DNA of 64,000 nucleotides from Verrucomicrobiota bacterium. Lineage in GTDB: Bacteria; Verrucomicrobiota; Verrucomicrobiia; Limisphaerales; UBA11358. The translations under genes and the position numbers were made by a program. This document shows positions 36,567 to 64,000 of the stretch, piece after piece (the first letter of the stretch is position 1; every line of letters begins with the position of its first letter). The stretch is from NCBI GenBank assembly GCA_036803685.1, contig DAIRTX010000001.1, positions 6,766 to 70,765 of the forward strand, in the 5' to 3' direction. Below the pieces are notes generated by a model. It searched no databases. It was not told the DNA's origin and was given only the letters and a program-made list of their open reading frames with translations.

Positions 36567-36580
36567 AAGAATTGCAACAA

Positions 36581-37645: not shown

Positions 37646-37655
37646 GCTGTGCGGA

Positions 37656-38986: not shown

Positions 38987-38988
38987 GA

Positions 38989-39950: not shown

Positions 39951-40082
39951 GGTTTGTTGTCAGAAAAATGAGGCACGGACGCTCAAAAAAAAAGCCCTAA
40001 TTTCCAAATCCTAATGACGAAACAAGCCCGAAGCCCGAATGATTTGGATCTGGGACATTGATCATTATTTCGAAATCAGGAT

Positions 40083-40790
40083 TTAGGGGCTTAGGATTTT
40101 TTCCAATTCAGCCAACCCGGCGGGCGAGCCCATCTCGTAAAATCTTTCCCGAACTTCAAAGCCGGCCAATTGCTTTTGACGGACGAGCTTGCTCATGACT
40201 TCGGCCAGGTCGAACGGCTCGTCGGCGGAATATGAATTAAACACTGCCGCTTTGAACAGGCTCAGGCCGTAATCAATGTGCCGCATTTCCGGCGGGCGGT
40301 TCTTTTTGTCATAAACCGCGATTTCACCGTCGCGAAAAACGACGTTGCTGGTGTCGTAACGCCCCTCGTTGCGATAGGCGGTCATGCAGCCGAGCTTGCC
40401 GCTATGCCGGAAAAATTCCGCGATGGGACGGTATTCAACCGGCAAATACGAATCCCCGTAGAGCACAAAAAACTCATCGCCGAGCAGCGGCAGCGCGCGT
40501 TTGATTGCGCCACCCGTGCCAAGCGGTTTCGGGCCATCGAATGAATAATCCAGCCGGATGCCATAGGTCGAGCCGTTGCCGAACTCGCGTTGAATCATTT
40601 CGCCGAGATAACCGATGCACAGCACTGCGCGGCGGATGCCGCGGGACTGAAGCAAATCGAGCTGGTGCGCCAGAAACGGTTTGCCCGCGACGGGCACGAG
40701 CGATTTGGGAATTTTTTCCGTGATGGGCCGCAATCGTGTGGCGAGTCCGCCCGCAAGAATGGCGACGGGAATGTCGAGCGGCGCGCTCAC
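40083..40790 (-). CDS. hddC: Sugar-1-phosphate nucleotidyltransferase (HddC-like D-glycero-alpha-D-manno-heptose 1-phosphate guanylyltransferase)
   Basis: AILAGGLATRLRPITEKIPKSLVPVAGKPFL, LGTGGAIK, VLYGDSY. GTGA overlap with the upstream GHMP kinase. The nucleotide specificity is inferred from context only. Confidence 0.8.
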   Translation of the reverse strand: MSAPLDIPVAILAGGLATRLRPITEKIPKSLVPVAGKPFLAHQLDLLQSRGIRRAVLCIGYLGEMIQREFGNGSTYGIRLDYSFDGPKPLGTGGAIKRALPLLGDEFFVLYGDSYLPVEYRPIAEFFRHSGKLGCMTAYRNEGRYDTSNVVFRDGEIAVYDKKNRPPEMRHIDYGLSLFKAAVFNSYSADEPFDLAEVMSKLVRQKQLAGFEVRERFYEMGSPAGLAELEKILSP

Positions 40791-42753: not shown

Positions 42754-42886
42754 TCAAATTCCTTTTATGGACTGCGGTGGCAGAGCGCAGCGACGACACC
42801 GCTTTGGGGGCGCCGTGAAGAACCATGAAAGCGGCGTGGCGCTTCGCTTCCCGCCGCACTCCAAAAGGTGCGCTTCATTTTGGGGT

Positions 42887-43750
42887 TCATCTATCCCCCC
42901 ACGTTTTGCCGCGGTCCTTCGGCACGATGCGGCGCAGCGTGTAAATGTCGCTGTTCAAGTCATCCTTGAGTTCGTGGAGTTTTTCCCACGGATCCCACTG
43001 GGCGCTGATGAGCTTGCCAGTAATACCATCGCTTTGCGCACTGGCGAGATAGACCGCGAGGTTCGCGCCAAGTTCAAGCGGCGTGGCGCCTTTATCTTTC
43101 CATTGCTTGTTCTTCTCGTAGAACGCCGCGCCGACTTTTTCCGGACCGGCGGCCAGAACTTCGTCCACCAGCCGCGTCGCCAAAGCTCCGGGTGCAATTG
43201 CGTTCACGTCCACGCAAAACGTTTTCAATTCCTCCGCCAACGTTTCCATAAGGCGGATCACCGCGGCCTTCGATGCGGCGTAAGCACTGATGTTCGGCAA
43301 TGGATTCGTCGCACCACCGCCGGAAAGAATGACAATTTTGCCATGACCGCTTTTTTTGAAATGCGGAATGACCGCGCGGCACGGGAGCAACACACCGTAA
43401 AGATTGATGTCCATCGCGCGACGCCATTCTTCGAGCGAAACGGATTCCGTCGCGCCCATCGGGCCGTAAATACCAGCGTTCAATACCAGCGCGTGAAGCG
43501 GTCCGAGTTCATGCAACGCGAACGCGACGAGTTCGTTCACTTGGGTTTCGCTGGAAACGTCGCAAATCTTTGCCGGGACTTTTTGCGAAGGAAATTGTTT
43601 TGCCAGTTCGTCGCGCGTGGCGAGCAACTCCTTTTCCCCGCGCGCACAAAGGACGACGTTCGCGCCTTCGACCAGGAAATGCCCGGCGATGGCTTTGCCG
43701 AGTCCCTGGCTGCCGCCGGTGATGAGCGCATTGATACCTTTAAGTTTCAT
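42887..43750 (-). CDS. Short-chain dehydrogenase/reductase (SDR)
   Basis: ALITGGSQGLGKAIA, NAG, and the YAASKAA catalytic motif. Start chosen at MKLKGINALITGG (43750), 2 nt after the upstream stop. Confidence 0.88.
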   Translation of the reverse strand: MKLKGINALITGGSQGLGKAIAGHFLVEGANVVLCARGEKELLATRDELAKQFPSQKVPAKICDVSSETQVNELVAFALHELGPLHALVLNAGIYGPMGATESVSLEEWRRAMDINLYGVLLPCRAVIPHFKKSGHGKIVILSGGGATNPLPNISAYAASKAAVIRLMETLAEELKTFCVDVNAIAPGALATRLVDEVLAAGPEKVGAAFYEKNKQWKDKGATPLELGANLAVYLASAQSDGITGKLISAQWDPWEKLHELKDDLNSDIYTLRRIVPKDRGKTWGDR

Positions 43751-43752
43751 AT

Positions 43753-45021
43753 TCAAACGCGACCAACGGAAAAATGTTCGACGGCGGGCAGGTTTTTCAA
43801 TTCCTTTTCCAAAAAACGGTTGGCGTCCACAAAAATGCGCTGGCGCATGGCCGGGGCAATTTTCGCCCAATCCGCCCCACGAAATTCAGGCCACTCGGTG
43901 CAAACCACAGCGGCGTCCGCGCCGTTCAGCGCCCCGGTTATTTGGGAAGCGAGCCGCACCCCGGCGAGTTCGGCGGGCAATTGTTTCACCGCCGGGTCAA
44001 AGGCGTGAACGCCCGCGCCCTCCGCCAGAAGATTCCGGCACAATTCCACCGCCGCGCTGCGGCGGAGTGTGTCAGTGTTGGTGGTGTAAGTCAGGCCGAG
44101 CACGGCGATTTTCTTTCCGCGCAAATCGCCGAGACGCGATTGCAATCGCCGCAACGCCCAACCACGATGCAGATCGTTGCTCTGCGTGATGGCCGAAATG
44201 ACGGAAATTTTTTCATTTTTCGCGGCCGCCAGTTTGGTCAGCATAACAACGTCACGCGCGAGCGTGCCGCCGGCAAACGGACCACCGGGACCGAGATAAG
44301 CCTTTGGCCCGATGCGCGGTTCACTTTTCAAACCGGCGGAAACCTCCTTGGCGTCCGCGCCGACGTGTTCGCCCAATCGTGCAATCTCGTTGATGAACGT
44401 GATGGAAAGCGCGAGAAATGAATTAAGAGCGTGCTTCACCATCTCGGCCGACTCGGTGCGCATGAATAAAATTTGCGGAGTGAACGGTGTGAACAGTTTT
44501 TCGAGCAGTGCTTTTTTCGCGTCGTCACGGATGCCGACGATAACGCGCCCGGCTTTTTCAAACGCGTCAATCGCCCTGCCCAGCCGCAGATTTTCGGGTG
44601 AGCAGGCGAAATGAAATTGCGGAAATTCGGCTTCCAGCCGGCGGCAGGTGCCGACGGGCAGTTGGGCGGAAATCAATACCAGCGCGCCTTTGGGCAGCTG
44701 CGGCAGCGCGCGGCGGAGATTGGCGAGAACGAAGTCCACATCCGATTCGTCGTTTTCATTGACCGGCGTGTCGTAGCAAAGCCAGAGCACGTCGGCGCGG
44801 GCGCACGCGATTTTGGGATCGGTGGTGAACGAAAGTTTCTTTGCGGCAAGACCGGCAGTGATGAGTTCATTCAGCCCCGGCTCGAAAAGCGGAGCCTGGC
44901 CGGAATCAAGTTTGGCGATGTTCGCCTCGTCGAAGTCGAGTCCGACAACCTGGAAATGCCGCGCGCCGCACGCAGCGGTGACGCAGCCGAGATGCCAGAG
45001 GCCGAGGACGGTGACATTCAT
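43753..45021 (-). CDS. UDP-glucose/GDP-mannose dehydrogenase-family protein lacking the catalytic cysteine
   Basis: N-terminal VTVLGLWHLGCVTAA Rossmann fold; central EPRIGPKAYLGPGGPFAGGTLARDV; C-terminal UDP-binding domain (KIAVLGLTYTTNTDTLRRSAA). Start at 45021 forms an ATGA overlap with the epimerase stop. Confidence 0.85.
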   Translation of the reverse strand: MNVTVLGLWHLGCVTAACGARHFQVVGLDFDEANIAKLDSGQAPLFEPGLNELITAGLAAKKLSFTTDPKIACARADVLWLCYDTPVNENDESDVDFVLANLRRALPQLPKGALVLISAQLPVGTCRRLEAEFPQFHFACSPENLRLGRAIDAFEKAGRVIVGIRDDAKKALLEKLFTPFTPQILFMRTESAEMVKHALNSFLALSITFINEIARLGEHVGADAKEVSAGLKSEPRIGPKAYLGPGGPFAGGTLARDVVMLTKLAAAKNEKISVISAITQSNDLHRGWALRRLQSRLGDLRGKKIAVLGLTYTTNTDTLRRSAAVELCRNLLAEGAGVHAFDPAVKQLPAELAGVRLASQITGALNGADAAVVCTEWPEFRGADWAKIAPAMRQRIFVDANRFLEKELKNLPAVEHFSVGRV

Positions 45022-46141: not shown

Positions 46142-46891
46142 ATGGCAAATTTTATCCTGAAAACACTCCAGCGTTTTGGCGACCGCCAGCGGCATCTGGG
46201 CATTCAACGTTGCAATGATTGGGGGGGGCGAGCTGTAGTTGATCTATCACCGCAGAGTTTGTTGGATGTGGGTTGCGGTGACGGGAACATGTTATTCCGG
46301 TATTTCAAGCAGGTTCCGACTGAATTTTACGGGGTGGAAGGCGCGCCACCGCTCAAAGCCAAAGCCGAACAGCGCGGGATCAAGGTATTCAGTTACGATT
46401 TGAACGGACGCTGGCCCTTTGAAGACGGCAAATTCGATGTGGTGTTCAGTTCCCAGGTGATCGAGCATCTGCACAACACACGGTTATTCGTCGAGGAAAC
46501 TTACCGGGTACTCAAACCCGGCGGCACGGCAATCATCATGTCAGAAAATCTGTCCAGCTTGTTGAATTGCTTTGCGTTGTGCCTGGGTTATACGCCATTT
46601 TCGCTAATGCAGATTTGCGGGCGTTACCTCGGTAATCCACTAGGACTTCATTACAACGAGCCAATAGTTGAACACGTGCCCATTGACCACCCCGCCTTTG
46701 CCGGCATCTCAGGTCATGTGCGTGTGTTAACAGTGCACCAAGCCCGGGAGTTGTTTGCACTTGCCGGCTTTGACGCCGAGGTGCGTTCCATCAGCCTTCT
46801 GCCGCTGCCCGACGGCCTGAGTCGAGTGCTGGAGCGAATCGCTTCCAAGCGCGGTCATTTTTTGCTGATTCGCGCCCGCAAGCCTCATTAA
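46142..46891 (+). CDS. Class I SAM-dependent methyltransferase (contains a G8 tract at codons 27-29)
   Basis: Motif I LLDVGCGDGN and post-I/II motifs (FDVVFSSQVIEHL, LKPGG). Confidence 0.85.
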   Translation: MANFILKTLQRFGDRQRHLGIQRCNDWGGRAVVDLSPQSLLDVGCGDGNMLFRYFKQVPTEFYGVEGAPPLKAKAEQRGIKVFSYDLNGRWPFEDGKFDVVFSSQVIEHLHNTRLFVEETYRVLKPGGTAIIMSENLSSLLNCFALCLGYTPFSLMQICGRYLGNPLGLHYNEPIVEHVPIDHPAFAGISGHVRVLTVHQARELFALAGFDAEVRSISLLPLPDGLSRVLERIASKRGHFLLIRARKPH

Positions 46892-47004: not shown

Positions 47005-48060
47005 ATGAGCACTGTAATTGTAACTGGCGCAGCCGGCTTGATTGGTTCAGAAAGTGTTAAGCGATTTGCTCAAGCGGGCCTCAAGGTGGTCGGCATTGAC
47101 AATGACTTGCGACGCTGGTTCTTCGGTGACGGCGCCTCCACGCTGGCCAACCGCCGGAAACTCATCGAGTCCATCCCGAATTATCAACATCACGACTTTG
47201 ACATCCGCGACCGTCGGGCTGTCGAAAATCTGCTCCGCCAACTCGGCAAGGACATCACCCTGATCATCCACACGGCGGCGCAACCCTCACACGATTGGGC
47301 AGCGCGCGATCCGCACGCGGACTTCAGCGTCAACGCCACCGCGACACTCAATTTGCTGGAGGCGACGCGACAATTTTGTCCGGAGGCCGTTTTCATCTTC
47401 ACCTCCACCAACAAGGTTTATGGCGACACGCCCAATTACCTGCCGTTGGTCGAGCTGGAAAAGCGCTGGGAAATCAAACCCGGTCACGCCTGCGAACCCG
47501 GCATCCCGGAAACAATGAGCATTGACCAGACCAAACACTCGTTGTTCGGCGCATCGAAAGTCGCGGCGGACGTGCTGGTGCAGGAATACGGGCGTTATTT
47601 TGGAATGAAGACGGCGTGTTTCCGTGGCGGATGTCTGACTGGACCGGCCCATGCCGGCACGGAATTACACGGTTTCCTTGCTTACCTGATGCGCTGCACC
47701 GTGACCGGCACACCCTATCGGGTGTTCGGCTACAAAGGCAAACAGGTGCGCGACAACATTCACAGCCACGATTTGGTGGAAGCCTTCTGGCAATTTTTCC
47801 TCAAGCCGCGCTCGGGCGAGGTTTACAACATCGGCGGCAGCCGCCATTCAAATTGTTCCATGCTCGAAGCGATTGACCTGTGCGAACAAATCAGCGGCCA
47901 CAAATTGAAATGGACTTACGAGGAAAACAACCGCATCGGCGACCATATTTGGTGGATCAGCGACGTGCGGAAATTCCAAAGTCACTATCCCGCCTGGAAA
48001 TTTCAATATAACCTGGGGCAGATTCTCGAAGAAATCCATCACGCCTGCCTGGCCAGTTGA
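47005..48060 (+). CDS. NAD-dependent epimerase/dehydratase (CDP-paratose 2-epimerase-like family)
   Basis: [50 protein letters not shown]. Confidence 0.85.
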
Positions 48061-48063: not shown

Positions 48064-49131
48064 ATGCCTGCCTTTCCAGAAAGCATTTTGATCGCCGGCG
48101 GCGCGGGCTTTGTCGGCGGCAATCTCGCCGTGTTCCTGAAGCGACGCCACCCTCAAACTCGCGTCATCGCCATGGACAACTTGCACCGGCCCGGTTCCGA
48201 ATTAAATCTGCCCCGGCTGCGTGAAGCCGGGGTGGAGTTCGCCAAAGGCGACATCCGGTCCGCTGAGCAGTTCCCCACCGGGCCGTTTGAGGCCATCATT
48301 GAATGTTCCGCCGAACCTTCCGTGCTGGCCGGTTACGCCGACTCGCCGGACTATCTCATGGAAACAAATTTTCTGGGCACCTACCGCTGCCTTGAAAAAG
48401 CCCGGCAATGGCAAAGCCATTTTTTGTTTCTTTCCACCAGCCGCGTTTATCCCATGGCCCCGCTGGAAGCGCATCCCTGGCGCGAAAGCGAAACGCGTTT
48501 TGAGTGGCTGGACGCCGCCGGAGCGCTGATTTCCTCGCAAGGCGTCCGCGAAGAATGCGCGGCCCAAGGCGCGCGCTCGCTTTACGGGCTGACCAAGTTT
48601 GCCAGCGAAGGGTTGATTGAGGAATACCGCGCCGGATTTGGACTTCGAGCGGCCATCAACCGTTGCGGCGTCATTGCCGGACCGTGGCAAATGGGCAAGG
48701 TGGATCAAGGCGTCGTGTCGTTGTGGGTGCTGCGTCACTATTTCGGCAAACCGCTTTCTTACATTGGCTACGGCGCCATCGGCAAACAGGTCAGGGACGT
48801 GCTGCACGTGGCCGACCTTTGCGAACTGGTCGAAGAGCAAATTTCCAACTTCGACCGTTGGGACGGCTGGCTCGGCAACGTTGGCGGCGGGCTGGAAATT
48901 TCCGTTTCGCTTCAAGAACTGACCGCCGTGTGCCGGAAAGTTGTCGGACGAGAAGTGCCGGTTGGCGCCGAACCGGAAAACCGCCAGGCCGATTTGCGGA
49001 TTTTCCTCGCCGATTGTTCCAAATTGTTTGCGCGAACCAACTGGCGTCCGAAACGCGGCGTGACCCAAACCGTCGCTGACATTTTTGAATGGGTGCGCGC
49101 CCACGAAAAGGCATTGCACCCGCTGGTATGA
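48064..49131 (+). CDS. NAD-dependent epimerase/dehydratase (CDP-paratose/tyvelose 2-epimerase-like)
   Basis: ILIAGGAGFVGGNLA, DNLHRPGSELNLPRL, YGLTKFASE, QGVVSLW...GKQVRDVLHVADL, and GNVGGG resemble Salmonella RfbE as I recall it. Confidence 0.85.
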   Translation: MPAFPESILIAGGAGFVGGNLAVFLKRRHPQTRVIAMDNLHRPGSELNLPRLREAGVEFAKGDIRSAEQFPTGPFEAIIECSAEPSVLAGYADSPDYLMETNFLGTYRCLEKARQWQSHFLFLSTSRVYPMAPLEAHPWRESETRFEWLDAAGALISSQGVREECAAQGARSLYGLTKFASEGLIEEYRAGFGLRAAINRCGVIAGPWQMGKVDQGVVSLWVLRHYFGKPLSYIGYGAIGKQVRDVLHVADLCELVEEQISNFDRWDGWLGNVGGGLEISVSLQELTAVCRKVVGREVPVGAEPENRQADLRIFLADCSKLFARTNWRPKRGVTQTVADIFEWVRAHEKALHPLV

Positions 49132-52649: not shown

Positions 52650-52735
52650 TCATTTCACAATCCACGGTTTGAACCGGTTCCGCAACCGCCGCCAGAATTG
52701 TTCGCGCGATGAGAGCGGCCGTCCATCATTCGAGA
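52650..52735 (-). pseudogene. 3'-terminal remnant of a GT8-like glycosyltransferase gene (third copy)
   Basis: Encodes ...NDGRPLSSREQFWRRLRNRFKPWIVK*. This is homologous to the C-termini of 53712-54293 (NDGRPLTPHEQFWRRLRNRFKP*) and 58685-59488 (PDGRPLTNREQFWRRLRNKFRPWAVG*). No upstream homologous body is present. Confidence 0.5.
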
Positions 52736-53711: not shown

Positions 53712-54293
53712 TCACGGCTTGAAACGGTTTCGCAACCTTCGCCAAAATTGTTCGTGCGGAGTCAGTGGACGCCCGTCGTTGACCAAAGGCGGCAACTCGG
53801 CGCGTGACTTGGTTGGCAACATTTTTTTTGCCTCATCCATGCACGTGGCGTTGTGATAAATCATGACGCCGTCCAGATGTTCGACCGTCGGCCAGCCGCG
53901 CCGTCCGTTCTTGAAATAGGCACGGAAATTGTATTGGCACGGCAAAATCCTGAGGCGGTCGAAGTATCTGGTCAGGATGACTTCGTTGAGACAGAGTTGA
54001 TCGTCGGCCAGGGTGCGGAAATGGGATCGTCCGCGGGCGACGATTTCCGCGCGAATGTCCCGGCTGCGCGGCACATTCCAGAGACAAACGCCGCCGTTCA
54101 AAAAGTTCGCCGTGTAACCCGGCCCCAACACGTAGCGGCTGCCGTGATGTTCGACACAGGCGGCCACATCCGCATTGCCAAGCAATTGTTCAAACGGCGG
54201 CAGGGGTTGAAGACACCGCACGTCAAAACTGTCCACCGTCATCGCATAATCCACCCCCAGGCCATCGAGCACTTCCAGCCGGCGGGCAGTCAT
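53712..54293 (-). pseudogene. N-terminally truncated copy of the GT8-like glycosyltransferase (copy B)
   Basis: 193-aa ORF, about 95% identical to residues 75-267 of 58685-59488. It lacks the first ~74 residues (the Rossmann beta1/nucleotide-binding part). Its ATG lies in unrelated sequence just beyond the duplication boundary at 54285. Confidence 0.6.
53815..54285. repeat. 471-bp duplicated segment, copy B (pairs with 58800-59270)
   Basis: My hand alignment is gap-free at a constant offset of 4985 nt, with 12 mismatches in 471 (459/471). 53896-54203 is a 308-bp run of perfect identity. Confidence 0.9.
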
Positions 54294-54468
54294 TCAGAAG
54301 AACCCATAACTTTACCCGTAATCCTCCCAGCGAGTTTTTGAAGGACTTCAGGCAAAATTCAGCCAGCTTAAATTTATCTTCGGCGAAAATCGGAGGGCGG
54401 CTGGCGGACATTTTGGGATAAATCCGGTAAGCCACCGCTACATCATAACTAAATCGGCTCATAATCAT
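54286..54468 (-). pseudogene. 5' fragment (61 codons) of an unrelated gene truncated by the duplication junction
   Basis: ATG 54468 overlaps the upstream gene's stop (ATGA). It reads MIMSRFSYDVAVAYRIYPKMSASRPPIFAEDKFKLAEFCLKSFKNSLGGLRVKLWVLLNDC, then enters the duplicated segment out of frame and stops at 54223. The N-terminus resembles some glycan-cluster glycosyltransferases (recollection only). Confidence 0.45.
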
Positions 54469-55454
54469 TTCATTTGCGTCTTGGATTCTCCCTTGAAAAA
54501 AGCGCGATACCATTGGCAGGTGCGGGATAAGCCTTCTGCCAGAGAATATTGGCTTTTCCATCCGAGCACAGTTTGTTCAAACTCCGGCGCATAGAAAGTA
54601 TCAACCCGTTCTTCCGATTTTTCGTTTAAGACACGCGGCTCAATGTCAGGCAATCCTGCTGCGCGGGCAATCTGTTTTACCATATCCAAAACACTTGTTC
54701 CTAATCCGGTGGCCACGCGGAACAATTGCCCTTTCACCGCCGGATTATCCAGACGCGCGCCGATGGCCATGTATGCCGCCACCGCATCCTCGATGTAAAC
54801 GTAATCCCGTTGAAACAGACCGTTGCTGCGAATCACGGGCGTCTCACCGTGAAGGATTGCGCGAATCGTGCCGGGCACCAGCCGGGACCAATTGAAATCG
54901 CCGCCGCCATAGATGTTGTCGGATCGCACGAGCGCCACGAGAAGGCCGAACGTGTCGCCGTAAGCGCGGGTCACCAATTCGGCGGCGGCTTTGGAAGTCA
55001 TGTAGGGATGATGCAACCGGTTCACGCCGGGCAAAAAACAATCTTCAACTTCCTTGCTGGAGGCGACGACGGCACACGCGGGTTTTGGCGCGGTGCGGCA
55101 CGCTTCGAGAATGGTATAGACGCCGCGAATGTTCGTTTCAAAAATTTCATAGGGCGACAAATCCGATCCTGTGTTCGTGTTAATCGCGGCCAGATGATAA
55201 ACGATCTCAATTGCCGAATCGGCAATAAGTCTGGAAACAAAATTCAAGTCAGTGATGTCTCCCTGTACGACCTTGATGCCGGTTTTACGCGGCCGGAATT
55301 TTTCATTACCTGGGGAATTTGGCCCGATCAACGCGCAGGTCTGCGCGCCGCGCGCCGCCAAAGCGTTGGCCAGCCAATATCCCACGAAACCATCCGCTCC
55401 CGTAACCAGCACGCGCCGCGAAGTCCATTTGAGCAGTTGCGGCTGTTGATTCAC
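54465..55454 (-). CDS. NAD-dependent sugar dehydratase/epimerase/reductase (diverged paralogue of the rfbG-like gene)
   Basis: VLVTGADGFVGYWLANAL, YMTSKAAAE (YxxxK), NIYGGGDFNWSRLVP. The usual SSDKAYG serine motif is replaced by SSKEVEDC. GTGA overlap with the upstream gene. Confidence 0.82.
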   Translation of the reverse strand: MNQQPQLLKWTSRRVLVTGADGFVGYWLANALAARGAQTCALIGPNSPGNEKFRPRKTGIKVVQGDITDLNFVSRLIADSAIEIVYHLAAINTNTGSDLSPYEIFETNIRGVYTILEACRTAPKPACAVVASSKEVEDCFLPGVNRLHHPYMTSKAAAELVTRAYGDTFGLLVALVRSDNIYGGGDFNWSRLVPGTIRAILHGETPVIRSNGLFQRDYVYIEDAVAAYMAIGARLDNPAVKGQLFRVATGLGTSVLDMVKQIARAAGLPDIEPRVLNEKSEERVDTFYAPEFEQTVLGWKSQYSLAEGLSRTCQWYRAFFKGESKTQMK

Positions 55455-56761
55455 AAGGAATAGGCCAGGTCTTCAAACGAACGTTCCAGATAACGTTCGT
55501 AGTTGGACGCGTCCACAATATGCAATCGCGGCAAGTCGAAAACCATTTTGCAGCCGTTCTTCAGAAGCGCGATTTCATCGCGAATCACTTCCTTGCGGAA
55601 ATGCCAGATCAACACGAAGAGATATCCGGGATTCAGTTTCCGAAGTTTTTCGTGGGAAATAATTGGAATGCGGGTGCCCGGCGTGACCAAACCGTCCTTT
55701 TCAGGATTTCGATCTCCGATGGCAACCAAATCTGCGGCGCCGAGACCGCAGTAATTCAAAACTATATTACCTTTGGTCGAAGCGCCATAGCCATAGACCT
55801 TTTTGCCCGCCGCGTTCATCATTGAAAAAAAACCGCGCACGTCGTCCCGATGTGTGAGAATGCGATTGCGAAGCCGGGAAAAAGGCTCGTCGGTATCCAG
55901 TAAAGCCTCGTCGTCGAGCAGTTTTTTTATTTTTCCCATTTGAGGCTGATACGGCCCGTCCTCGCGACCGGCAATGATATAGAAACTTCCGCCGTTCATG
56001 TCGTTGAACGAAACGTCCAGAATTTTAAGTCCCGTTTTTTTCATCATCCAATCCATCTGCCGAAGACCAAGATAAGTGACATGCTCGTGACAGATTTGAT
56101 CGTAAGTGAGTTGTTTGAGCAACAACGGCAAATAGGATAGTTCCAATGCCCAGACACCATCTTTGGAAAGCAGCGCCCGAATATCGCGCATGAATTTCAT
56201 CGGTTCATCCAAATCGTAGAACATGGCGATTGAGGTGATGATTTTACAGCTTTTATCTCCGATAAGAGACCGCGCGCCTTTTTCAGAGAAGAAATCGTAA
56301 ACTGTCTTGATGTCCGGCTGGAAATGGCTCGCAAACTTTTTGCTGGATGGATCCATGCCGATGCGCATGAGACCGGCCTTCGATCCATAAGCATTCAAAA
56401 GAGTGCCGTCGTTGCAGCCGATGTCCAACACCACGTCGTCCGATTTCGGTTTGGCGAAATCAACGAGCGCGCGCACTTTGGATTCCAGATGCGAAACCAT
56501 CGTGGGACTGATTGAGGAATAGTATCCGTAAGTGGTGCCGTACATTTCGCTCAACTCGGCGGTGTGCAGAAGCTGAACCAGTCCGCAGGCTCCCGGTTTG
56601 GCCTGAACATCGCATCGAACCAATTTCAATGGAGAAATTGACGGATCCGGCGCGTCGGAACGCGGAAACACTCCGCTAAGCGGCTGATTTCCGAGATCAA
56701 TAATCTCTTTAAGATTTGGATTTCCACAAATTCGACAGTGAGTCCAGGTTTTTAACGGCAT
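55451..56761 (-). CDS. NDP-hexose C-methyltransferase (TylCIII-like; zinc-finger + SAM MT + C-methyltransferase C-terminal domain)
   Basis: N-terminal CRICGNPNLKEIIDLGNQPLSG, SAM motif VLDIGCNDGTLL, and a C-terminal domain with YGYGASTKGN. Confidence 0.88.
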   Translation of the reverse strand: MPLKTWTHCRICGNPNLKEIIDLGNQPLSGVFPRSDAPDPSISPLKLVRCDVQAKPGACGLVQLLHTAELSEMYGTTYGYYSSISPTMVSHLESKVRALVDFAKPKSDDVVLDIGCNDGTLLNAYGSKAGLMRIGMDPSSKKFASHFQPDIKTVYDFFSEKGARSLIGDKSCKIITSIAMFYDLDEPMKFMRDIRALLSKDGVWALELSYLPLLLKQLTYDQICHEHVTYLGLRQMDWMMKKTGLKILDVSFNDMNGGSFYIIAGREDGPYQPQMGKIKKLLDDEALLDTDEPFSRLRNRILTHRDDVRGFFSMMNAAGKKVYGYGASTKGNIVLNYCGLGAADLVAIGDRNPEKDGLVTPGTRIPIISHEKLRKLNPGYLFVLIWHFRKEVIRDEIALLKNGCKMVFDLPRLHIVDASNYERYLERSFEDLAYSL

Positions 56762-56805
56762 AAAAGGGTTTCAATCTATGGGTTGATCTTGGCAAATGGT
56801 CTGCA

Positions 56806-57801
56806 TCAAAATTGAGCCGCCAGATATTCGCGATACCACGCAATCGTTTCGTTCAATCCCTCTTCCAGCGTGTATTGCGGTTTCCATTTCAAAACGCGAT
56901 GCGCCTTTGTCGTGTTGAGATATTGCTCGCGAATTTCGCCGGTGGCGGTGTTTTGCACGTCGGGTTCGAGATGCTTGCAGTTCATCAATTGCTGAATCAC
57001 TTTGACGAGTCCGAGCACGGTCATGGGACGTTCGAGACTGAAGTTGAATGCCTGACCGGGCACTTTTTTGTCCGAGAGACATTCCGCGGCTCTCATATAG
57101 CAGCGGCTCACATCTTTGACGTAAATGTAATCGCGCACATATCGGCCGTCGCTGCGGATGACCGGTCGTTGATTGTTCAAAAAACAGCGAATCGCGTAAG
57201 GCACGATGCGGCTCCAGTTCAAATCGCCGCCGCCATAGATATTTCCGCAACGAAGAATCACGACGGGCAAACCGTAAGTATGATGATACGCCTGCGTGAT
57301 GAGGTCAGCGCAGCTTTTCGAGACTTCGTAGGGATGCTTGCCTTGCAGCGGCATGTCTTCAGTGTAAGGCAGGTGTTCGTGTTCGCCGTAAGCTTTGTCG
57401 CTTGAAGCGATGACAACGCGCTTCACGAGATCGGAATGAATGCGGCACGCTTCGAGCAAATTGTAAGTGCCGCTGACATTCGTTTCAAAAGTCGGCAATG
57501 GATAACGATGCGCGACATTCACGATCGGCTGGGCGGCCAGATGAAAAACCGTGTCCGCTTCATTTTCATTCAGTGCGCGTTCGAGACTCGAAAAATCCTC
57601 AACGTTTCCCTGCACGAGCGAAGTCTGCCGGTAATCGCCGGAGCGAAAAAAACCGGATTGCGGATCAGGATCGCGCACGAGTGCAATCACGCGCGCGCCG
57701 GATGCGATCAAATCTTTCACGAGCCAATAACCGACCATGCCCGTCGCGCCGGTCACGAACACACGGCGGTCGCGCCAAAAATTATTTTTGGATGTTTTCA
57801 T
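56806..57801 (-). CDS. rfbG: CDP-glucose 4,6-dehydratase-like enzyme
   Basis: FWRDRRVFVTGATGMVGYWL, SSDKAYGE, HPYEVSKSCADL, NIYGGGDLNWSRIVP. Start at 57801 gives an ATGA overlap with the rfbF stop. Confidence 0.82.
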   Translation of the reverse strand: MKTSKNNFWRDRRVFVTGATGMVGYWLVKDLIASGARVIALVRDPDPQSGFFRSGDYRQTSLVQGNVEDFSSLERALNENEADTVFHLAAQPIVNVAHRYPLPTFETNVSGTYNLLEACRIHSDLVKRVVIASSDKAYGEHEHLPYTEDMPLQGKHPYEVSKSCADLITQAYHHTYGLPVVILRCGNIYGGGDLNWSRIVPYAIRCFLNNQRPVIRSDGRYVRDYIYVKDVSRCYMRAAECLSDKKVPGQAFNFSLERPMTVLGLVKVIQQLMNCKHLEPDVQNTATGEIREQYLNTTKAHRVLKWKPQYTLEEGLNETIAWYREYLAAQF

Positions 57802-58586
57802 TTCCAGATTTTCCACGGGGCTTTGCCCGTCTTCCAGACATTGTTGAGGACTTCAAATTCATACGGCGTGTCCATGTGATGCCAATAGCCGTCGTGCTGG
57901 TAAATCATGAGTTCGCCGTCCACCGCCATGCGCTGCAACGGCTCGCGTTCAAGAATTAGATTTTCCTGATTGTTCAAGTAGCGGTCGAAGATGGACGCAT
58001 TGAATACGAAAAATCCGCCGTTGAGATAACCGCCGCTGAATTCCGGCTTTTCATTGAACTTCACAACCTTGTCGCCCTTGAGCACCAGATCGCCAAAACG
58101 CCCCGGCGGATGCGCGCCGGTCAATGTCCCAACTTTACCGTGCGATTTGTGAAATTGAATAAGCGCAGGAATGTCAATGTTCGCGACCCCATCGCCATAA
58201 GTCGCGCAAAAAATTCCTTCCGGCTCCAGATATTTCCGCGCGCGCCAGAGCCTCGCGCCGGTCATCGCATCTTCGCCCGTGTCCACGCACGTGATGCGCC
58301 ACGGCTCGGCGGACTGGCTGTGAAAGGCGACACGGTCGGGGCCGTTGCGGCTGAGGTCAACAGTGATGTCATTCGTCACTGCGGCAAAGTTAAGAAAAAA
58401 ATCGCGAATGTAATCACCCTTGTAGCCGAGCAGCAAAACAAATTCGTTAAAGCCATAAGCGCTATAAATTTTCATGATGTGCCACAAAATCGGGCGATTG
58501 CCAATCAGTGTCATCGGCTTGGGAAGAACATCGCTGACTTCACGGAAGCGCATGCCGCGGCCTCCGCATAGAATTGCAACTTTCAT
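57798..58586 (-). CDS. rfbF: Glucose-1-phosphate cytidylyltransferase
   Basis: MKVAILCGGRGMRFREVSDVLPKPMTLIGNRPILWHIMKIYSAYGF..FVLLLGYKG and the C-terminal WHHMDTPYEF/APWKIW are the RfbF signature. I prefer the start at 58586; the 38-codon extension is unsupported. Confidence 0.92.
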   Translation of the reverse strand: MKVAILCGGRGMRFREVSDVLPKPMTLIGNRPILWHIMKIYSAYGFNEFVLLLGYKGDYIRDFFLNFAAVTNDITVDLSRNGPDRVAFHSQSAEPWRITCVDTGEDAMTGARLWRARKYLEPEGIFCATYGDGVANIDIPALIQFHKSHGKVGTLTGAHPPGRFGDLVLKGDKVVKFNEKPEFSGGYLNGGFFVFNASIFDRYLNNQENLILEREPLQRMAVDGELMIYQHDGYWHHMDTPYEFEVLNNVWKTGKAPWKIWK

Positions 58587-58613
58587 TTTCAACGAAGATA
58601 CCGAATACTTGAC

Positions 58614-58642
58614 ATAGTATTCAATAACTAATGGGATTTCAA
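58614..58642 (-). promoter_or_regulatory. Candidate sigma70-type promoter for the rfbF operon
   Basis: On the minus strand: TTGAAA (58642-58637), a 17-nt spacer, then TACTAT (58619-58614), about 28 nt upstream of the rfbF ATG. Preceded by a weak hairpin plus T7 tract (58641-58665) that could terminate the upstream GT8 gene. Confidence 0.3.
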
Positions 58643-58684
58643 AAAAAGCAGCGCGCGGACGTTGCAGGAAGACCGACCGGTGGC

Positions 58685-59488
58685 TCACCCGACCGCCCAC
58701 GGTCTGAACTTGTTCCGTAACCGCCGCCAGAATTGCTCGCGGTTTGTCAGCGGACGCCCATCGGGTGGCAACCCGGGCAGCGCGGCACGGGGTTTTACCG
58801 GCAATATTTTTTTTGCCTCATCCATGCACGCGGCGTTGTGATAAATCATGACGCCATCCAGATGTTCGACCGTCGGCCAACCGCGCCGTCCGTTCTTGAA
58901 ATAGGCACGGAAATTGTATTGGCACGGCAAAATCCTGAGGCGGTCGAAGTATCTGGTCAGGATGACTTCGTTGAGACAGAGTTGATCGTCGGCCAGGGTG
59001 CGGAAATGGGATCGTCCGCGGGCGACGATTTCCGCGCGAATGTCCCGGCTGCGCGGCACATTCCAGAGACAAACGCCGCCGTTCAAAAAGTTCGCCGTGT
59101 AACCCGGCCCCAACACGTAGCGGCTGCCGTGATGTTCGACACAGGCGGCCACATCCGCATTGCCAAGCAATTGTTCAAACGGCGGCAGCGGCTGAAGACA
59201 CAGCACGTCAAAACTGTCTACCGTCATCACATAATCCACCCCCAGACCGTCGAGCACCTCCAGCCGGCGGTAATAAACCTCGCGTAACGGGTGTGAAAAA
59301 TCGGGCGAGGGAGCGAGCAGATGGTATTGGATGCCGGGAATCCGGCGCTGGGGCAGCTGCCCGCCAAGGATGAACGCATGCAACTCCGCGTTGGGACACC
59401 GGGCAAAGCTGGAGAACGTGTGGTCCAGATTTTCCGTGGCCTTGCCCATGGCCAGCGTGACCACGGCGGAGCGGGAAGATTGATTCAT
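58685..59488 (-). CDS. GT8-like glycosyltransferase (full-length copy A)
   Basis: 267 aa. AVVTLAMG, a DxD-like VDSFDV, FLNGGVCLWN, DDQLCLNEV and LPCQYNF match the GT8 (LPS glucosyl/galactosyltransferase-type) motif pattern. Confidence 0.78.
   Translation of the reverse strand: MNQSSRSAVVTLAMGKATENLDHTFSSFARCPNAELHAFILGGQLPQRRIPGIQYHLLAPSPDFSHPLREVYYRRLEVLDGLGVDYVMTVDSFDVLCLQPLPPFEQLLGNADVAACVEHHGSRYVLGPGYTANFLNGGVCLWNVPRSRDIRAEIVARGRSHFRTLADDQLCLNEVILTRYFDRLRILPCQYNFRAYFKNGRRGWPTVEHLDGVMIYHNAACMDEAKKILPVKPRAALPGLPPDGRPLTNREQFWRRLRNKFRPWAVG
58800..59270. repeat. 471-bp duplicated segment, copy A (pairs with 53815-54285)
   Basis: See 53815-54285. 459/471 identical, with no gaps. Confidence 0.9.
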
Positions 59489-59541
59489 ATGCGCGGTTGC
59501 TGACCTCGGATGTAGTTCAGAGGCGTATTATGACTGCACTG

Positions 59542-60315
59542 TCAACTCAGCTTTACAGCCAACCGGCCCGAAAAATCAAGTTTGATCAACAGTGGCACAA
59601 ATGTCTGCCTGGCAAAATAATCATCCACCGCCTTTCGACAGCCCCGCCAAAAGCCGTAATCGTCGATGATGAGCACGCCGTTGGAGCAGAGCAAGGGATA
59701 AAGATGCGTGAGTTCGTGATAAGTGGATTCATACCAATCAGTATCCAGTCGCAGAAGCGCGATTCTCTTGGGCATGGAAGCAGGCAGGGTATCCTCAACC
59801 CGGCCCTTGATGAAATGAATCTTGTCTTTGGGATAACCGGTGGAAAAAACATTCCTTTGCACGTCATTCAGCCCGGCGACACACCAATAGGAATGTCCCT
59901 CTTTATCATTTTCTGAAATCGCCAGGAGGTCTGCTGCACGTGTATGGTCATATGTTACATCTTTGTCGGTCGGGGGCGTCATGCCCTCATAAGTATCATA
60001 AAGATAAAAATGCCGCGAAGTATCGCCGAGTTGCAAAAGAGTCAACATTGCCGCCATCATGCTGCCCCCTCGCCAGACGCCACATTCCACAAAATCGCCC
60101 TCTATCCGGTTGTGGGAAAGGTATTTCACGGCATTGATCAGACCGCCAATGCGCTCGATCCCGGTGGCTGTGAAAGGTTTTACTTTGACCATGATTTCCA
60201 ATTCATCCGGGGTGTAATCTCCCCCTATTTTAACAATCTCATACCCAAAGAACCGAAAGAAACGGTGAATAGCTACTTGCACAGGGTCGAGAATAAAACG
60301 ATATCTTACATTCAT
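59542..60315 (-). CDS. TylF/MycF-family (macrocin-type) sugar O-methyltransferase
   Basis: GDFVECGVWRGGS, LYDTYEGM, and LRLDTDWYESTYHELTHLYPLLCSNGVLIIDDY are hallmark TylF motifs. Confidence 0.88.
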   Translation of the reverse strand: MNVRYRFILDPVQVAIHRFFRFFGYEIVKIGGDYTPDELEIMVKVKPFTATGIERIGGLINAVKYLSHNRIEGDFVECGVWRGGSMMAAMLTLLQLGDTSRHFYLYDTYEGMTPPTDKDVTYDHTRAADLLAISENDKEGHSYWCVAGLNDVQRNVFSTGYPKDKIHFIKGRVEDTLPASMPKRIALLRLDTDWYESTYHELTHLYPLLCSNGVLIIDDYGFWRGCRKAVDDYFARQTFVPLLIKLDFSGRLAVKLS

Positions 60316-60432
60316 TTTTAATGTCAGTTCATGTCAGTTCAAACCTAATACATAGGTAAAACCGGCGGTAATCAGCAAGTGGAAACTATCAAAGTTAAGA
60401 CCCTTTATTGACCGTTGATGTCGGATCCCATG

Positions 60433-61155
60433 TCAGTAAAGCTGGGTGGGAATTACGGATTCGGATGAATAGGTGGAATCTTTTTCCTTGGTCGCAGCCA
60501 CCACCACCGTGTACGCCCACGAAGGAAGGTATGTGGCCAGTGGCGACCAAAATTCTTCAATCTTGGGCAAGTAAAATGCGCTGCCTATGGCCCGCTCAAA
60601 CCGGAACCCATGGGCTTTCAACACGATCTTGATGGTGCGCAAGGTGAAGTCGCGGAAATGCGCCGAACGATAGCGCGCCGCATACATGGGCGGCAGGTCA
60701 AAAAACAGCATCATGCCCAGACCTAAAATTGTGCGGATGTTGGGAAATGTCAGCACCAATTTGCCGCCCGGCTTCAACACGCGGTTGATCTCAAACATCA
60801 ACCAGTCGGTGTCTACTTGATGTTCAATGGTTTCGCCACAGAAGATGGCGTCGAACTTGCCCGCCGGATACGGCAGTGGGCCACTCTCAAGGTTGTGGTG
60901 GACGGCATGAATCCCGTTTTTAATCGCACGTTCTACAAGACCGGGCGCTATGTCCACGCCGTGGATTTCGTGAACCTTCGTCAGGGGTCCCAAGATGTCG
61001 CCGCTGGCACAACCCACATCGAGGATCATTCTGCCCGCGGCCATCTCAGAAAAAATGCGCCTTACTTTTTGAACACGCCGACAAGAGGGATCGGGAGCGT
61101 ACCCTTCATGTCTTGTTCCCTCATTAAGCAACAATTGTAATTCATAACTTTTCAT
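60433..61155 (-). CDS. Class I SAM-dependent methyltransferase
   Basis: Motif I ILDVGCASGD, then FDAIFCGETIEH and LKPGGKLVL. Confidence 0.88.
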   Translation of the reverse strand: MKSYELQLLLNEGTRHEGYAPDPSCRRVQKVRRIFSEMAAGRMILDVGCASGDILGPLTKVHEIHGVDIAPGLVERAIKNGIHAVHHNLESGPLPYPAGKFDAIFCGETIEHQVDTDWLMFEINRVLKPGGKLVLTFPNIRTILGLGMMLFFDLPPMYAARYRSAHFRDFTLRTIKIVLKAHGFRFERAIGSAFYLPKIEEFWSPLATYLPSWAYTVVVAATKEKDSTYSSESVIPTQLY

Positions 61156-61405: not shown

Positions 61406-64000
61406 ATGAAAAACACCAGACCGGCTTCTCAAAACAAGTTGCAAGCTCTAAAGTTCTCCACTCTTTTGGTGGCACTTCTGGTCTTGCTGTTTTGGCGAAG
61501 TTTTTTGCCTAACTTCGTCCATTTTTCGAACGACGGTCCTCTGGGGCAACTAAACGCTGATTGGGTGCGACTCCCTGCCGCTTTTACCGCAATTTGGGAT
61601 GATTTGAATGATATCGGCAGTAGTGGTGGGGCTTTTCCGCCAGATTTTAATGCATTATCTCAATGGTTGCTCGGCCCCACCGGCTACGCAAAATTCTTTG
61701 CGCCCATCGCTTTGTTTTTTTTGGGATTCAGCGCGTGGTGTTTTTTTAGGCAGTTGAAATTTTCGCCATTGGCGGCGACGCTGGGCGCATTGGCCGCCGC
61801 CTTGAATTCCGCCTTTTTTACCACTGCATGTTGGGGCGTGGGCGGCCAGTTGGATGCTTTCAGCATGGACTTTCTTGCTTTGGCGCTGGTTGTATCCATC
61901 ACCTTGGAAACGTCCGCGCTCATTCGCTGGATCCGGCTGGCCCTAGCGGGGCTACTCGTCGGAATCAACGTGATGGAGGCCGCGGACATCGGCGCCATCT
62001 TCAGCCTGTTTGTCGCGGCCTTCGTGATTTATTTGGCGTTTGTCGGCGAATTGGCGTGGACACGAGTTGAACGCATCGTGGTATGGATTGTTGCTAATTT
62101 GGGTTTTGTTCTGTTGTTGTTTGTTATTTTGTTCGCAGGATACGGAACTAATTATTATTTACGCGGGAAACTGTTGATTCCTTTGCTGGTGGTCCCCGCT
62201 TGCGTTTGGAATTGGGCGATGGCCACGCGTTACACGCTGGCAAATCGGCTAGCGCATAGCATAGCGCGTGTCGGCGTTGTCGCTATTTTTGCCGGGTTTA
62301 TCGCCACGCAAACCGTCGTGGCGCTCGTCGGCTCGCAAATCACCGGCATCGCCGGCACCGGACAGGACGCGGAAACCAAAGTTCGCAACTGGGACTGGGC
62401 CACACAATGGAGCCTGCCAAAAATTGAAGCGCTCGGGCTGTTTATCCCCGGCCTGTTCGGCTATCGGATGGACACGCCAAAAAACATGATGGACTTTTCT
62501 CAAGACGCCTACAAAGGCGGCAATTATTGGGGCGGTGTCGGACGCGATCCGGTAATTGACCGCTTTTTTGCAAGCGGGAAAGAAGATTCCCCACCGCCCG
62601 GAATGATGCGCTTCACTGGCGGCGGCAATTATGCCGGGGTGCTGGTGACACTGGTGGCGTTGTGGGCGATTGCGCAATCGTTGCGACGACAAAATCCGGC
62701 ATTCACCGAAACGCAACGGCGGTTCATTTGGTTTTGGTCGGTGATACTGATTGTGTCGCTGTTGCTGGCCCTTGGCCGCTTCGCGCCCTTCTACAAATTG
62801 CTCTATATGCTGCCGTATGTCTCGACGATGCGGAATCCAAGCAAGTTCATGGCGGTTTTTTCGTGGGCGCTGGTCATTCTGTTTGCTTACGGCATCCATG
62901 GTTTGAGCCGGCGTTATTTGGAAATTTCGGCGGCTAATTCCACTTCGCCGCTGGCGCAATTCAAAAATTGGCGGATGAAAGCACGCGGCTTTGATCGAAA
63001 TTGGACGTTGGTCTGTGTCCTGGCTGTTATCGGCAGCGTGCTCGGGTGGCTGATTTACGCAATGGAGAAGCCGGGCCTTGTCCGTTACCTGCAGAAGGTC
63101 GGGTTTCCCGACGAAGGCATGGCCAAAGACATCGCCGCGTTCAGCCTCGGGCAGGTCGGCTGGTTCATCATGCTCTTCGCGCTGGCGGTCGGACTTTGCA
63201 CGCTCATCATTGCGGGAGTTTTTGCGGGGCGACGTGCAAAATTAGGCGGCTTTTTGCTCGGGGCGCTGCTCGTCATGGATTTGGGCCGGGCGAATCTGCC
63301 CTATATCATTCACTTGGATTACAAACAAAAATACGAGATTGGCTCGCTCAACCCCATTGTTGATTTCCTGCGCAACAAACCCTACGAATATCGTGTCGCC
63401 GACCTGCCGTTTGACACCCAGCAACGATTGAAATTCTACGACAATTATTTCGGCGGCAACGGGCTTTATCGCATTGAATGGGCCCAACACCATTTTCCCT
63501 ATTATAACATCCAATCGCTCGACAAAATTCAAATGCCGCGTATGCCGGCGGATTTGGAGGCTTACGAAATGGTCTTGATGCCCCGTTCGGAAAATACCTA
63601 TTCCCTCATGGCTCGTCGTTGGGAATTGACCAACACCCGCTATCTGCTCGGCGTGGCGGGTTTCTTGGGCATTTTGAACGAGCAACTCGACCCGGTGCAA
63701 CACCGTTTCCGTATCGCCCAACGCTTTGACGTGATACCCAAACCCGGCATCACCCAACCAACGGGACTGGAGGAACTCACCGCCATGCCCAGCGACGACG
63801 GCGATCTGGCTCTCATTGAGTTCACCGGGGCTTTGCCCCGTGCCAGGCTTTATTCCAACTGGCAGGTCAGCACGAATGACACCGCCACGCTGCAAACGCT
63901 GACGAATACAAATTTTGATCCGTGGCAAACCGTTTTGGTTTCCACGCCGTTGCCGACTGCGCCGGCCGCGGACGCGACCAATCAAAACGTTGGCTCGGTT
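61406..64000 (+). CDS. Large polytopic membrane protein, YfhO-like / GT-C-type candidate glycosyltransferase (5' 865 codons; continues beyond the window)
   Basis: I translated 61406-64000 codon by codon: 865 sense codons and no stop. There are many TM helices. FIPGLFGYRMD...YWGG...GGGNYAGVLVTLVALWAI and the C-terminal ...ARLYSNWQVSTNDTATLQTLTNTNFDPWQTVLV resemble the YfhO family. Absent from the ORF track because it has no in-window stop. Confidence 0.85.
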   Translation, partial: MKNTRPASQNKLQALKFSTLLVALLVLLFWRSFLPNFVHFSNDGPLGQLNADWVRLPAAFTAIWDDLNDIGSSGGAFPPDFNALSQWLLGPTGYAKFFAPIALFFLGFSAWCFFRQLKFSPLAATLGALAAALNSAFFTTACWGVGGQLDAFSMDFLALALVVSITLETSALIRWIRLALAGLLVGINVMEAADIGAIFSLFVAAFVIYLAFVGELAWTRVERIVVWIVANLGFVLLLFVILFAGYGTNYYLRGKLLIPLLVVPACVWNWAMATRYTLANRLAHSIARVGVVAIFAGFIATQTVVALVGSQITGIAGTGQDAETKVRNWDWATQWSLPKIEALGLFIPGLFGYRMDTPKNMMDFSQDAYKGGNYWGGVGRDPVIDRFFASGKEDSPPPGMMRFTGGGNYAGVLVTLVALWAIAQSLRRQNPAFTETQRRFIWFWSVILIVSLLLALGRFAPFYKLLYMLPYVSTMRNPSKFMAVFSWALVILFAYGIHGLSRRYLEISAANSTSPLAQFKNWRMKARGFDRNWTLVCVLAVIGSVLGWLIYAMEKPGLVRYLQKVGFPDEGMAKDIAAFSLGQVGWFIMLFALAVGLCTLIIAGVFAGRRAKLGGFLLGALLVMDLGRANLPYIIHLDYKQKYEIGSLNPIVDFLRNKPYEYRVADLPFDTQQRLKFYDNYFGGNGLYRIEWAQHHFPYYNIQSLDKIQMPRMPADLEAYEMVLMPRSENTYSLMARRWELTNTRYLLGVAGFLGILNEQLDPVQHRFRIAQRFDVIPKPGITQPTGLEELTAMPSDDGDLALIEFTGALPRARLYSNWQVSTNDTATLQTLTNTNFDPWQTVLVSTPLPTAPAADATNQNVGSV

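Follow-up and report, generated by a model that had tools for sequence, protein, structure and literature searches.

The window analysed here is a stretch of 64,000 nucleotides on contig DAIRTX010000001.1 of a Verrucomicrobiota bacterium (assembly GCA_036803685.1). We focus on four adjacent minus-strand genes, hereafter the core, which encode relatives of a glucose-1-phosphate cytidylyltransferase (RfbF), a cytidine diphosphate (CDP)-glucose 4,6-dehydratase, a nucleoside diphosphate (NDP)-hexose C-methyltransferase and a further short-chain dehydrogenase/reductase (SDR). The core is examined as a candidate source of a C-methyl-branched sugar. Such sugars are rare in cell envelopes and have usually been found by chemistry first.

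Organization of the locus

The region between 52.8 and 61.2 kb holds nine co-directional open reading frames (ORFs), all on the minus strand (Table 1). Pfam, NCBIfam and PDB-sequence searches typed seven of the nine as had been proposed in an initial annotation made from the letters of the window. All the genes named there lie where it had placed them and have strong family matches. Within the core, the frames of RfbF and the dehydratase overlap by 19 nucleotides and those of the C-methyltransferase and the last SDR by 4, while 44 nucleotides separate the dehydratase from the C-methyltransferase. This spacing fits a single operon. A promoter and terminator scan of 52-62 kb was uninformative, as its counts equalled those of shuffled controls.

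Table 1. Positions, in window numbering, of the core genes, their neighbours and other sugar-related modules (SAM, S-adenosylmethionine)
Feature	Position	Strand	Family match or remark
RfbF/DdhA, glucose-1-phosphate cytidylyltransferase (core step 1)	57798-58586 (ORF open to 58700)	-	TIGR02623
Diverged CDP-glucose 4,6-dehydratase, predicted (core step 2)	56806-57816	-	TIGR02622 best model; 1wvg/1rkx
NDP-hexose C-methyltransferase, TylCIII/TcaB9/MtmC family (core step 3)	55451-56761	-	PF08421 + PF13489 + PF08484
Extended SDR, dehydratase paralogue (core step 4)	54465-55454	-	39% identity to the dehydratase
TylF/MycF/NovP-family sugar O-methyltransferase (TylF257)	59542-60315	-	PF05711
Candidate GT-A-fold glycosyltransferase, 267 amino acids	58685-59488	-	Predicted fold; between TylF257 and RfbF; missed by the initial annotation
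Class I SAM methyltransferase (MT240)	60433-61155	-	PF08241, PF13489, PF13649
Class I SAM methyltransferase, 301 amino acids	52805-53710	-	PF08241, PF13489; no model above cutoff
N-terminally truncated GT-A-like copy, 193 amino acids	53712-54293	-	Lacks the first 73 residues; missed by the initial annotation
Fourth class I methyltransferase (MT249)	46142-46891	+	Missed by the initial annotation
Tandem CDP-tyvelose-2-epimerase-like SDRs (separate module, with MT249)	47005-48060, 48064-49131	+	PDB matches
GT9 heptosyltransferase, transaldolase, HAD phosphatase, SIS isomerase, HddA-like sugar kinase, HddC-like nucleotidyltransferase, Gfo/Idh/MocA oxidoreductase	36548-42753		

The core enzymes

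RfbF matches the equivalog model TIGR02623 over its full length (model positions 1-255 of 255, residues 39-299), with 318.1 bits against a cutoff of 300.25. Since the homology begins at Met39, the start lies probably at 58586 and not at 58700. The protein is 46-48% identical to the annotated rfbF products of Bacillus cereus, B. mycoides and Sinorhizobium meliloti and carries the glycine-rich loop LCGGRGMRF. It is predicted to be specific for cytidine triphosphate (CTP) and glucose-1-phosphate.

The second enzyme is a diverged dehydratase. In the PDB it comes closest to the CDP-glucose 4,6-dehydratases 1wvg (E value 1.5e-41) and 1rkx, whose T-S-D-K and Y-S-N-S-K motifs align with S-S-D-K and Y-E-V-S-K in the window protein. 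The D-K dyad is kept in all dehydratase-type sequences collected, both of the diverged (DH336-like) and of the RfbG-like type. In sister loci, the slot after rfbF harbors either the diverged type found in the window or a canonical RfbG, 48% identical to Bacillus rfbG.

The C-methyltransferase contains three domains which score above their cutoffs: the zinc ribbon PF08421, a class I methyltransferase domain and PF08484, at 54.1, 58.8 and 133.7 bits. Its PDB matches are MtmC (4rv9, 2.7e-54), TcaB9 (1.7e-45), KijD1 and 5t64. Four cysteines (C9, C12, C50 and C59), the SAM motif DIGCNDG and the H225-E226-H227 triplet are invariant in its clade, and the CxxC and HEH motifs align with those of MtmC. 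By analogy with characterised relatives, the enzyme would transfer a methyl group to C-3 of an NDP-4-keto sugar; its sequence may also be compatible with C-5 methylation of the NovU type.

The fourth-step SDR keeps the GxxGxxG motif and a Y-M-T-S-K sequence (YxxSK across its clade). In all eight clade members compared (8/8), the dehydratase D-K is replaced by K/R-E, with a three-residue insertion, which gives the signature SS(K/R)E(V/A)(E/D)DC. We reject a dehydratase function on account of this replacement, in agreement with the proposal of the initial annotation that the second SDR of the cluster is a non-dehydratase paralogue. Because the redox motifs are retained while the full dehydratase dyad is lost, the protein looks like a redox-competent paralogue, most simply a 4-ketoreductase. 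We regard it as the probable 4-ketoreductase of CDP-3-C-methyl-4-keto-6-deoxyhexose.

Conservation of the core across phyla

We collected 79 genome loci encoding relatives of the C-methyltransferase and scored their neighbours by comparison with sequences of RfbF, RfbG, Gmd, ManC and RmlA-D as references. Where the C-methyltransferase is at least 60% identical and the flanks are complete, its gene is preceded in nearly all loci by those for RfbF and a 4,6-dehydratase and followed by one for an SDR of the window's fourth-step type. The order RfbF-dehydratase-C-methyltransferase-SDR occurs in at least 10 loci, which belong to Verrucomicrobiota (Verrucomicrobia subdivision 3), Elusimicrobiota, Kuenenia stuttgartiensis and a cyanobacterial metagenome-assembled genome (MAG). 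The window protein is also present on contigs of the Verrucomicrobiota MAG GCA_900291565.1. The same order in independent loci of several phyla is far beyond chance. One locus (L005, 3246-4151) departs at the last position, where a Bacillus-type reductase, 43% identical to a B. cereus plasmid SDR, replaces the dehydratase-derived protein.

The C-methyltransferases at 38-45% identity form a much larger group. They adjoin Gmd, Gmd-like reductases and ManC, the guanosine diphosphate (GDP)-mannose route. In a neighbour-joining tree, the clade of the window together with SAR11 relatives, which also lie with RfbF, is sister to this large GDP-linked clade, and the CDP-linked C-methyltransferases of Bacillus and Sinorhizobium branch more deeply. 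On this tree, CDP linkage appears to occur in at least two lineages of the family, a reading to be taken with the lack of support values in mind. Clades of sugar C-methyltransferases follow the nucleotide pathway encoded beside them, which is of the CDP or GDP type in the loci considered here and of the deoxythymidine diphosphate (dTDP) type for the characterised enzymes of antibiotic pathways.

Proposed pathway

We conclude that the core is probably a four-gene operon for a CDP-activated, C-methyl-branched 6-deoxy sugar, functionally analogous to the cereose operon of B. cereus. The enzyme logic set out in the initial annotation, from CDP-glucose through CDP-4-keto-6-deoxyglucose and C-methylation to reduction, agrees with the family scores, the catalytic motifs and the conserved synteny.

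Synthesis would start with RfbF, whose equivalog-level match points to the conversion of CTP and glucose-1-phosphate to CDP-D-glucose. The diverged dehydratase would then yield CDP-4-keto-6-deoxy-D-glucose, as suggested by its catalytic residues and by the canonical RfbG that can take its place in sister loci. In the next step, the 4-keto group would allow formation of a 3,4-enediolate, to which the C-methyltransferase could add the methyl group of SAM at C-3; family and motifs of the enzyme are observed, and the regiochemistry is taken from its relatives. The position of the last SDR and the loss of the dyad suggest that it would reduce C-4 to give CDP-3-C-methyl-6-deoxyhexose. The sugar would presumably be moved onto a surface glycan by glycosyltransferases of the island. 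O-methylation by the TylF-like or class I methyltransferases, if it occurs, would follow this transfer.

Several points weigh against this assignment. The dehydratase scores 213.5 bits with TIGR02622, below the curated cutoff of 278.45, even though this is its best-scoring model. The role of the fourth-step SDR (reductase, epimerase or both) is deduced from its position and the missing dyad residue. The nearest large sister clade of the C-methyltransferase is linked to Gmd and ManC, and the nucleotide preference is read from the gene neighbourhood; the tree itself is a rough neighbour-joining one, and the whole clade is so far characterised by sequence. Furthermore, identity to the Bacillus plasmid operon falls from 46% for RfbF to 32% for the dehydratase, 27% for the C-methyltransferase and 22% for the SDR. 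This comparison was made with plasmid operons of the B. cereus group, whereas the characterised operon is chromosomal.

Comparison with known systems

The closest functional parallel comes from B. cereus, in which a four-gene operon reportedly leads to CDP-cereose (CDP-3-C-methyl-6-deoxygulose) and CDP-cillose (CDP-3-C-methyl-6-deoxyallose); the activities said to have been described by Li et al. in 2017 (J Biol Chem 292:7636) are a CDP-glucose synthase, a CDP-glucose 4,6-dehydratase, a SAM-dependent C-methyltransferase and an NADPH-dependent 4-reductase. The initial annotation knew of no established genetics for a CDP-linked route. This view is overtaken by the operon published in 2017 and by the rfbF-rfbG-methyltransferase(-SDR) sets of Bacillus plasmids and S. 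meliloti pSymB. The 2017 work is cited as reference 12 beside the spore sugar cereose (PMC10050317), and CDP-cereose and CDP-cillose are given as pathways from glucose-1-phosphate which differ in homologous C4-reductases (PMC7725333). The supplement of the latter also lists a family of nucleotide-sugar C-methyltransferases, drawn up from members characterised by experiment. Our literature search turned up no paper on vinelose and none on a branched CDP-glucose C-methyltransferase.

The window shares with the B. cereus operon the four enzyme families, the gene order, CDP activation and the absence of a 3-dehydrase; plasmids of B. cereus and B. mycoides carry rfbF-rfbG-methyltransferase-SDR in this same order. 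However, the C-methyltransferase of the window belongs to another clade, whose sister group is GDP-linked. Its last enzyme is a dehydratase paralogue (28-39% identity to dehydratases) and not a Bacillus-type reductase. The setting differs as well: the Bacillus sugars belong to a spore glycoprotein system, whereas the window comes from a Gram-negative verrucomicrobial MAG that carries an island of the lipopolysaccharide (LPS) type. We therefore reject orthology with the Bacillus operon, given the low identity and different clade of the C-methyltransferase and the closer relation of the SDR to dehydratases. The core is a distant new example of a pathway already worked out in B. cereus and not a new pathway. 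Its interest lies in the finding that the B. cereus CDP route has a distant counterpart conserved in several poorly cultured phyla. Known enzymology is unchanged by this result, and the practical value is in annotation and in the choice of targets for reconstitution.

On pSymB of S. meliloti, the rfbF-rfbG-C-methyltransferase trio stands in the same order as in the window. In contrast, the C-methyltransferase is 27% identical to that of the window and groups with the Bacillus clade, and no SDR follows the trio. To our knowledge, the trio is uncharacterised. The three genes (SMb21416-SMb21418) are annotated as ddhA, ddhB and NDP-hexose 3-C-methyltransferase (PMC4053727).

With TylCIII, TcaB9, MtmC and KijD1, the C-methyltransferase shares the three domains, the four-cysteine zinc site, the SAM motif and HEH (E values of 1e-40 to 1e-54 to MtmC, TcaB9 and KijD1). 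Those enzymes act on dTDP-linked 2,6-dideoxy or 3-amino sugars in secondary metabolism, whereas the neighbours in the window point to a CDP-linked 6-deoxyhexose that keeps its 2-hydroxyl, within an envelope glycan island. The GDP-linked pathways have the same succession of 4,6-dehydratase, C-methyltransferase and SDR and include the nearest large C-methyltransferase clade; they start from GDP-mannose through ManC and Gmd, while the window would use a CDP-glucose route through RfbF and an RfbG-like enzyme. A GDP-linked pathway to a C-methyl 6-deoxyhexose has been proposed for virenose in Coxiella burnetii (PMC3539893).

Lastly, the first two steps and the nearby CDP-tyvelose-2-epimerase-like genes recall the synthesis of CDP-3,6-dideoxyhexoses. 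That pathway runs from RfbF and RfbG through RfbH/E1 and RfbI/E3 to RfbS or RfbE. In the window, a C-methyltransferase follows the dehydratase instead, and no RfbH/E1 or E3 was found. The initial annotation had likewise noted the lack of an RfbH/E1-type 3-dehydrase. Among the window ORFs covered by the Pfam, NCBIfam and reference-sequence scans, there was no RfbH/DegT-type, RmlC-type, Gmd or ManC protein.

Alternative readings

The identity of the final product is less constrained than the route towards it. The first three steps may be as described and the product still differ from cereose and cillose, if the fourth-step SDR also epimerises or an epimerase is encoded elsewhere. The sugar could then belong to the talo or L-series and become vinelose after 2-O-methylation; CDP-vinelose is known from Azotobacter vinelandii. 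The fourth-step SDR and the Bacillus reductase are not orthologues; the former makes up a clade of its own with a conserved E-D-C insertion beside the catalytic serine, and a TylF-type sugar O-methyltransferase is adjacent in the window. In a cyanobacterial MAG, the dehydratase gene of a sister locus (L018, 3654-5951) is immediately followed by one for an RmlC-like epimerase, from which an L-series product could arise at that locus. However, no RmlC-type epimerase was found in the window itself, the tyvelose-epimerase-like pair sits in a separate module and conservation of the core does not extend to the O-methyltransferases. An L-sugar like vinelose, which the initial annotation names as a known C-methyl sugar, requires a 5-epimerase, an enzyme that the window does not have. 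We judge a product of this kind unlikely, though it is the most serious of the alternatives; the stereochemistry is not fixed by sequence either way.

Two further readings appear far less probable. The C-methyltransferase might take as substrate a 4-keto sugar carried on GDP, such as a derivative of the GDP-heptose-type pathway whose genes lie at 38.4-41.8 kb, or it might methylate C-5 like NovU; its position next to RfbF would then be incidental. The neighbourhood of its closest large clade would agree with this, as would the SIS isomerase, HddA-like kinase, HAD phosphatase and HddC-like nucleotidyltransferase of the window. Such an incidental pairing is nevertheless very hard to reconcile with the presence of RfbF and a dehydratase beside the C-methyltransferase in nearly every complete locus at 60% identity or above, in several phyla; moreover, the operon frames overlap, and no Gmd-like dehydratase or 3,5-epimerase is found in the window. 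The full model of the initial annotation went beyond the core and envisaged one sugar that is C-methylated, epimerised at C-2 by the epimerase-like pair and O-methylated several times by four methyltransferases. All these genes do lie within about 15 kb of one low-GC glycan island. Against this stand the occurrence of the pair and MT249 as a module apart from the core in Pedosphaera parvula and Methylacidiphilales, the missing catalytic tyrosine in one member of the pair, and the GT-A/methyltransferase set, which is found elsewhere away from CDP genes and in none of the 12 sister loci beside the core. We consider it highly improbable that one sugar engages all these enzymes, and favor the four-gene CDP operon described above.

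Accessory genes beside the core

The TylF-like protein is a clear member of its family (PF05711 at 145.6 bits against a cutoff of 23). Its PDB matches, at 1e-24 to 1e-27, are the O-methyltransferases 5i10/4cdz, MycF and NovP, and it carries the acidic motifs DTD at 191 and DD at 218. Relatives of TylF methylate deoxysugars that are already attached to an acceptor. MT240 and MT249 share 38% identity along 103 residues, and no NCBIfam model matches MT240 above cutoff.

Between TylF257 and RfbF lies a 267-residue protein, for which neither Pfam nor NCBIfam gives a match even at E<=5. At this threshold, Pfam yielded zero matches for this ORF, a 426-residue membrane ORF and 42767-44008. The family has at least 517 homologues of about 266 residues, mostly labelled "hypothetical" and located on Verrucomicrobia-type contigs. 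An AlphaFold 2 model (predicted local distance difference test score 76.6, predicted template modelling (TM) score 0.79) retrieved with Foldseek the GT6 enzymes GTA/GTB/a3GalT, the GT8 protein 3tzt and WbbM, with probability 1.0 and TM scores of about 0.5. Two aspartates, D91 and D94 of the DSFD motif (D91-x-x-D94), are invariant. The modelled fold makes this protein a candidate retaining GT-A glycosyltransferase.

The truncated copy of this gene shares 93% protein identity with residues 74-263 of the full-length protein and is probably a remnant. At the DNA level, 53713-54012 and 58698-58997 form a direct repeat of 86% identity, and a third short remnant of the 3′ end of the gene lies near 52650-52727 on the minus strand. 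The repeats are 4985 and 1050 nucleotides apart and suggest a recent duplication or rearrangement within the island.

Conservation gives these neighbours little part in the pathway. In the 12 sister loci, the core stands without the O-methyltransferases of the window, without the GT-A-like protein and without the epimerase-like pair; a TylF-like gene is adjacent in this window only. We reject the O-methyltransferases as conserved pathway members on this ground. Elsewhere, for instance at locus L095, homologues of the GT-A-like protein adjoin methyltransferases, including a 60% identical homologue of MT249, and no CDP genes. For this reason, the block formed by TylF257, MT240 and the GT-A-like gene looks separable from the core. 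O-methylation of the branched sugar is possible and draws no support from conservation, so that the "multiply O-methylated" sugar of the initial annotation would be a matter of proximity.

The tandem epimerase-like module

The initial annotation had also tied two CDP-paratose-epimerase-like genes on the opposite strand to the pathway. Both proteins have CDP-tyvelose 2-epimerases (9rl0 and 1orr) as their best PDB matches. In the first of the two, the catalytic tyrosine is replaced by phenylalanine, a feature missed earlier: it reads HSLFGASK where 1orr and 9rl0 read HSPYGCSK. The same replacement occurs in 120 of its 120 best homologues (74-93% identity). With FGASK in place of the catalytic Tyr-x-x-x-Lys, this protein departs from the pattern of the CDP-tyvelose/paratose 2-epimerases, while the second SDR keeps YGLTK. 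The Phe-type gene invariably has as its partner a second tyvelose-epimerase-like SDR in which YxxxK is retained. The tandem may be a pair of pseudoenzyme and partner, or its mechanism may be unusual. It recurs in Pedosphaera parvula and in a Methylacidiphilales MAG, accompanied by GT2 genes and a class I methyltransferase, and neither RfbF nor the C-methyltransferase is found with it. It is thus a separate, highly conserved verrucomicrobial module, and we do not retain it as part of the pathway. For the epimerase-like genes as for the accessory methyltransferases, proximity alone is insufficient for pathway assignment.

A lead from Kuenenia stuttgartiensis

A locus of Kuenenia stuttgartiensis (L019, 6994-12336) encodes a C-methyltransferase 66% identical to that of the window, an SDR of the fourth-step type, RfbG, RfbF and an adjacent GT2 glycosyltransferase. 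The S-layer O-glycan of this anammox bacterium contains an unassigned residue of 174.09 Da, described as a "putative dimethylated deoxyhexose" (PMC5088730). A 6-deoxyhexose residue with one C-methyl and one O-methyl group has a mass of 146.06 + 28.03 and is isobaric with it. The core could hence supply a concrete candidate gene set for the methylated deoxyhexose of the Kuenenia S-layer, and we offer an origin of the residue from the C-methyl-sugar module as a hypothesis.

A broader scenario can be drawn from these observations. The RfbF-linked clade of C-methyltransferases would have arisen apart from the Bacillus/Sinorhizobium clade and its fourth enzyme would have been recruited from a dehydratase paralogue. 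The product would differ in its stereochemistry from both cereose and cillose. Uncultured Verrucomicrobiota, Elusimicrobiota and anammox bacteria could carry it widely in their surface glycans, and after one O-methylation it could be identical to the 174.09-Da residue. Taken as a whole, this scenario is speculative and we hold it to be rather doubtful.

Genomic setting

At 49-54% over 52-62 kb, the GC content lies below the 56-60% of the remaining window, a pattern that fits lateral exchange of the glycan island. Its separate modules form a mosaic. Beside the island, the genes upstream at 36.5-42.7 kb form a heptose-nucleotide pathway and point to an island of the LPS type.

Past the methyltransferases, a plus-strand frame (61406-64000) stays open for more than 864 codons and continues beyond the end of the window; on a public contig that matches (L001), it is called as a gene of 970 residues. 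Its product is a large membrane protein with multiple passes and without a significant Pfam match, perhaps an envelope protein of the GT-C-like or polymerase type. Two other regions of the window (11408-17507 and 28541-31139) encode a secretin, two PF00437 secretion/pilus ATPases with MshEN domains and one further MshEN-domain protein. They represent type II secretion or type IV pilus-like machinery and are unrelated to the sugar core. A protein of 1531 residues, encoded at 31315-35910 on the plus strand, combines an alpha-amylase catalytic domain with the N- and C-terminal domains of glycogen-debranching enzymes.

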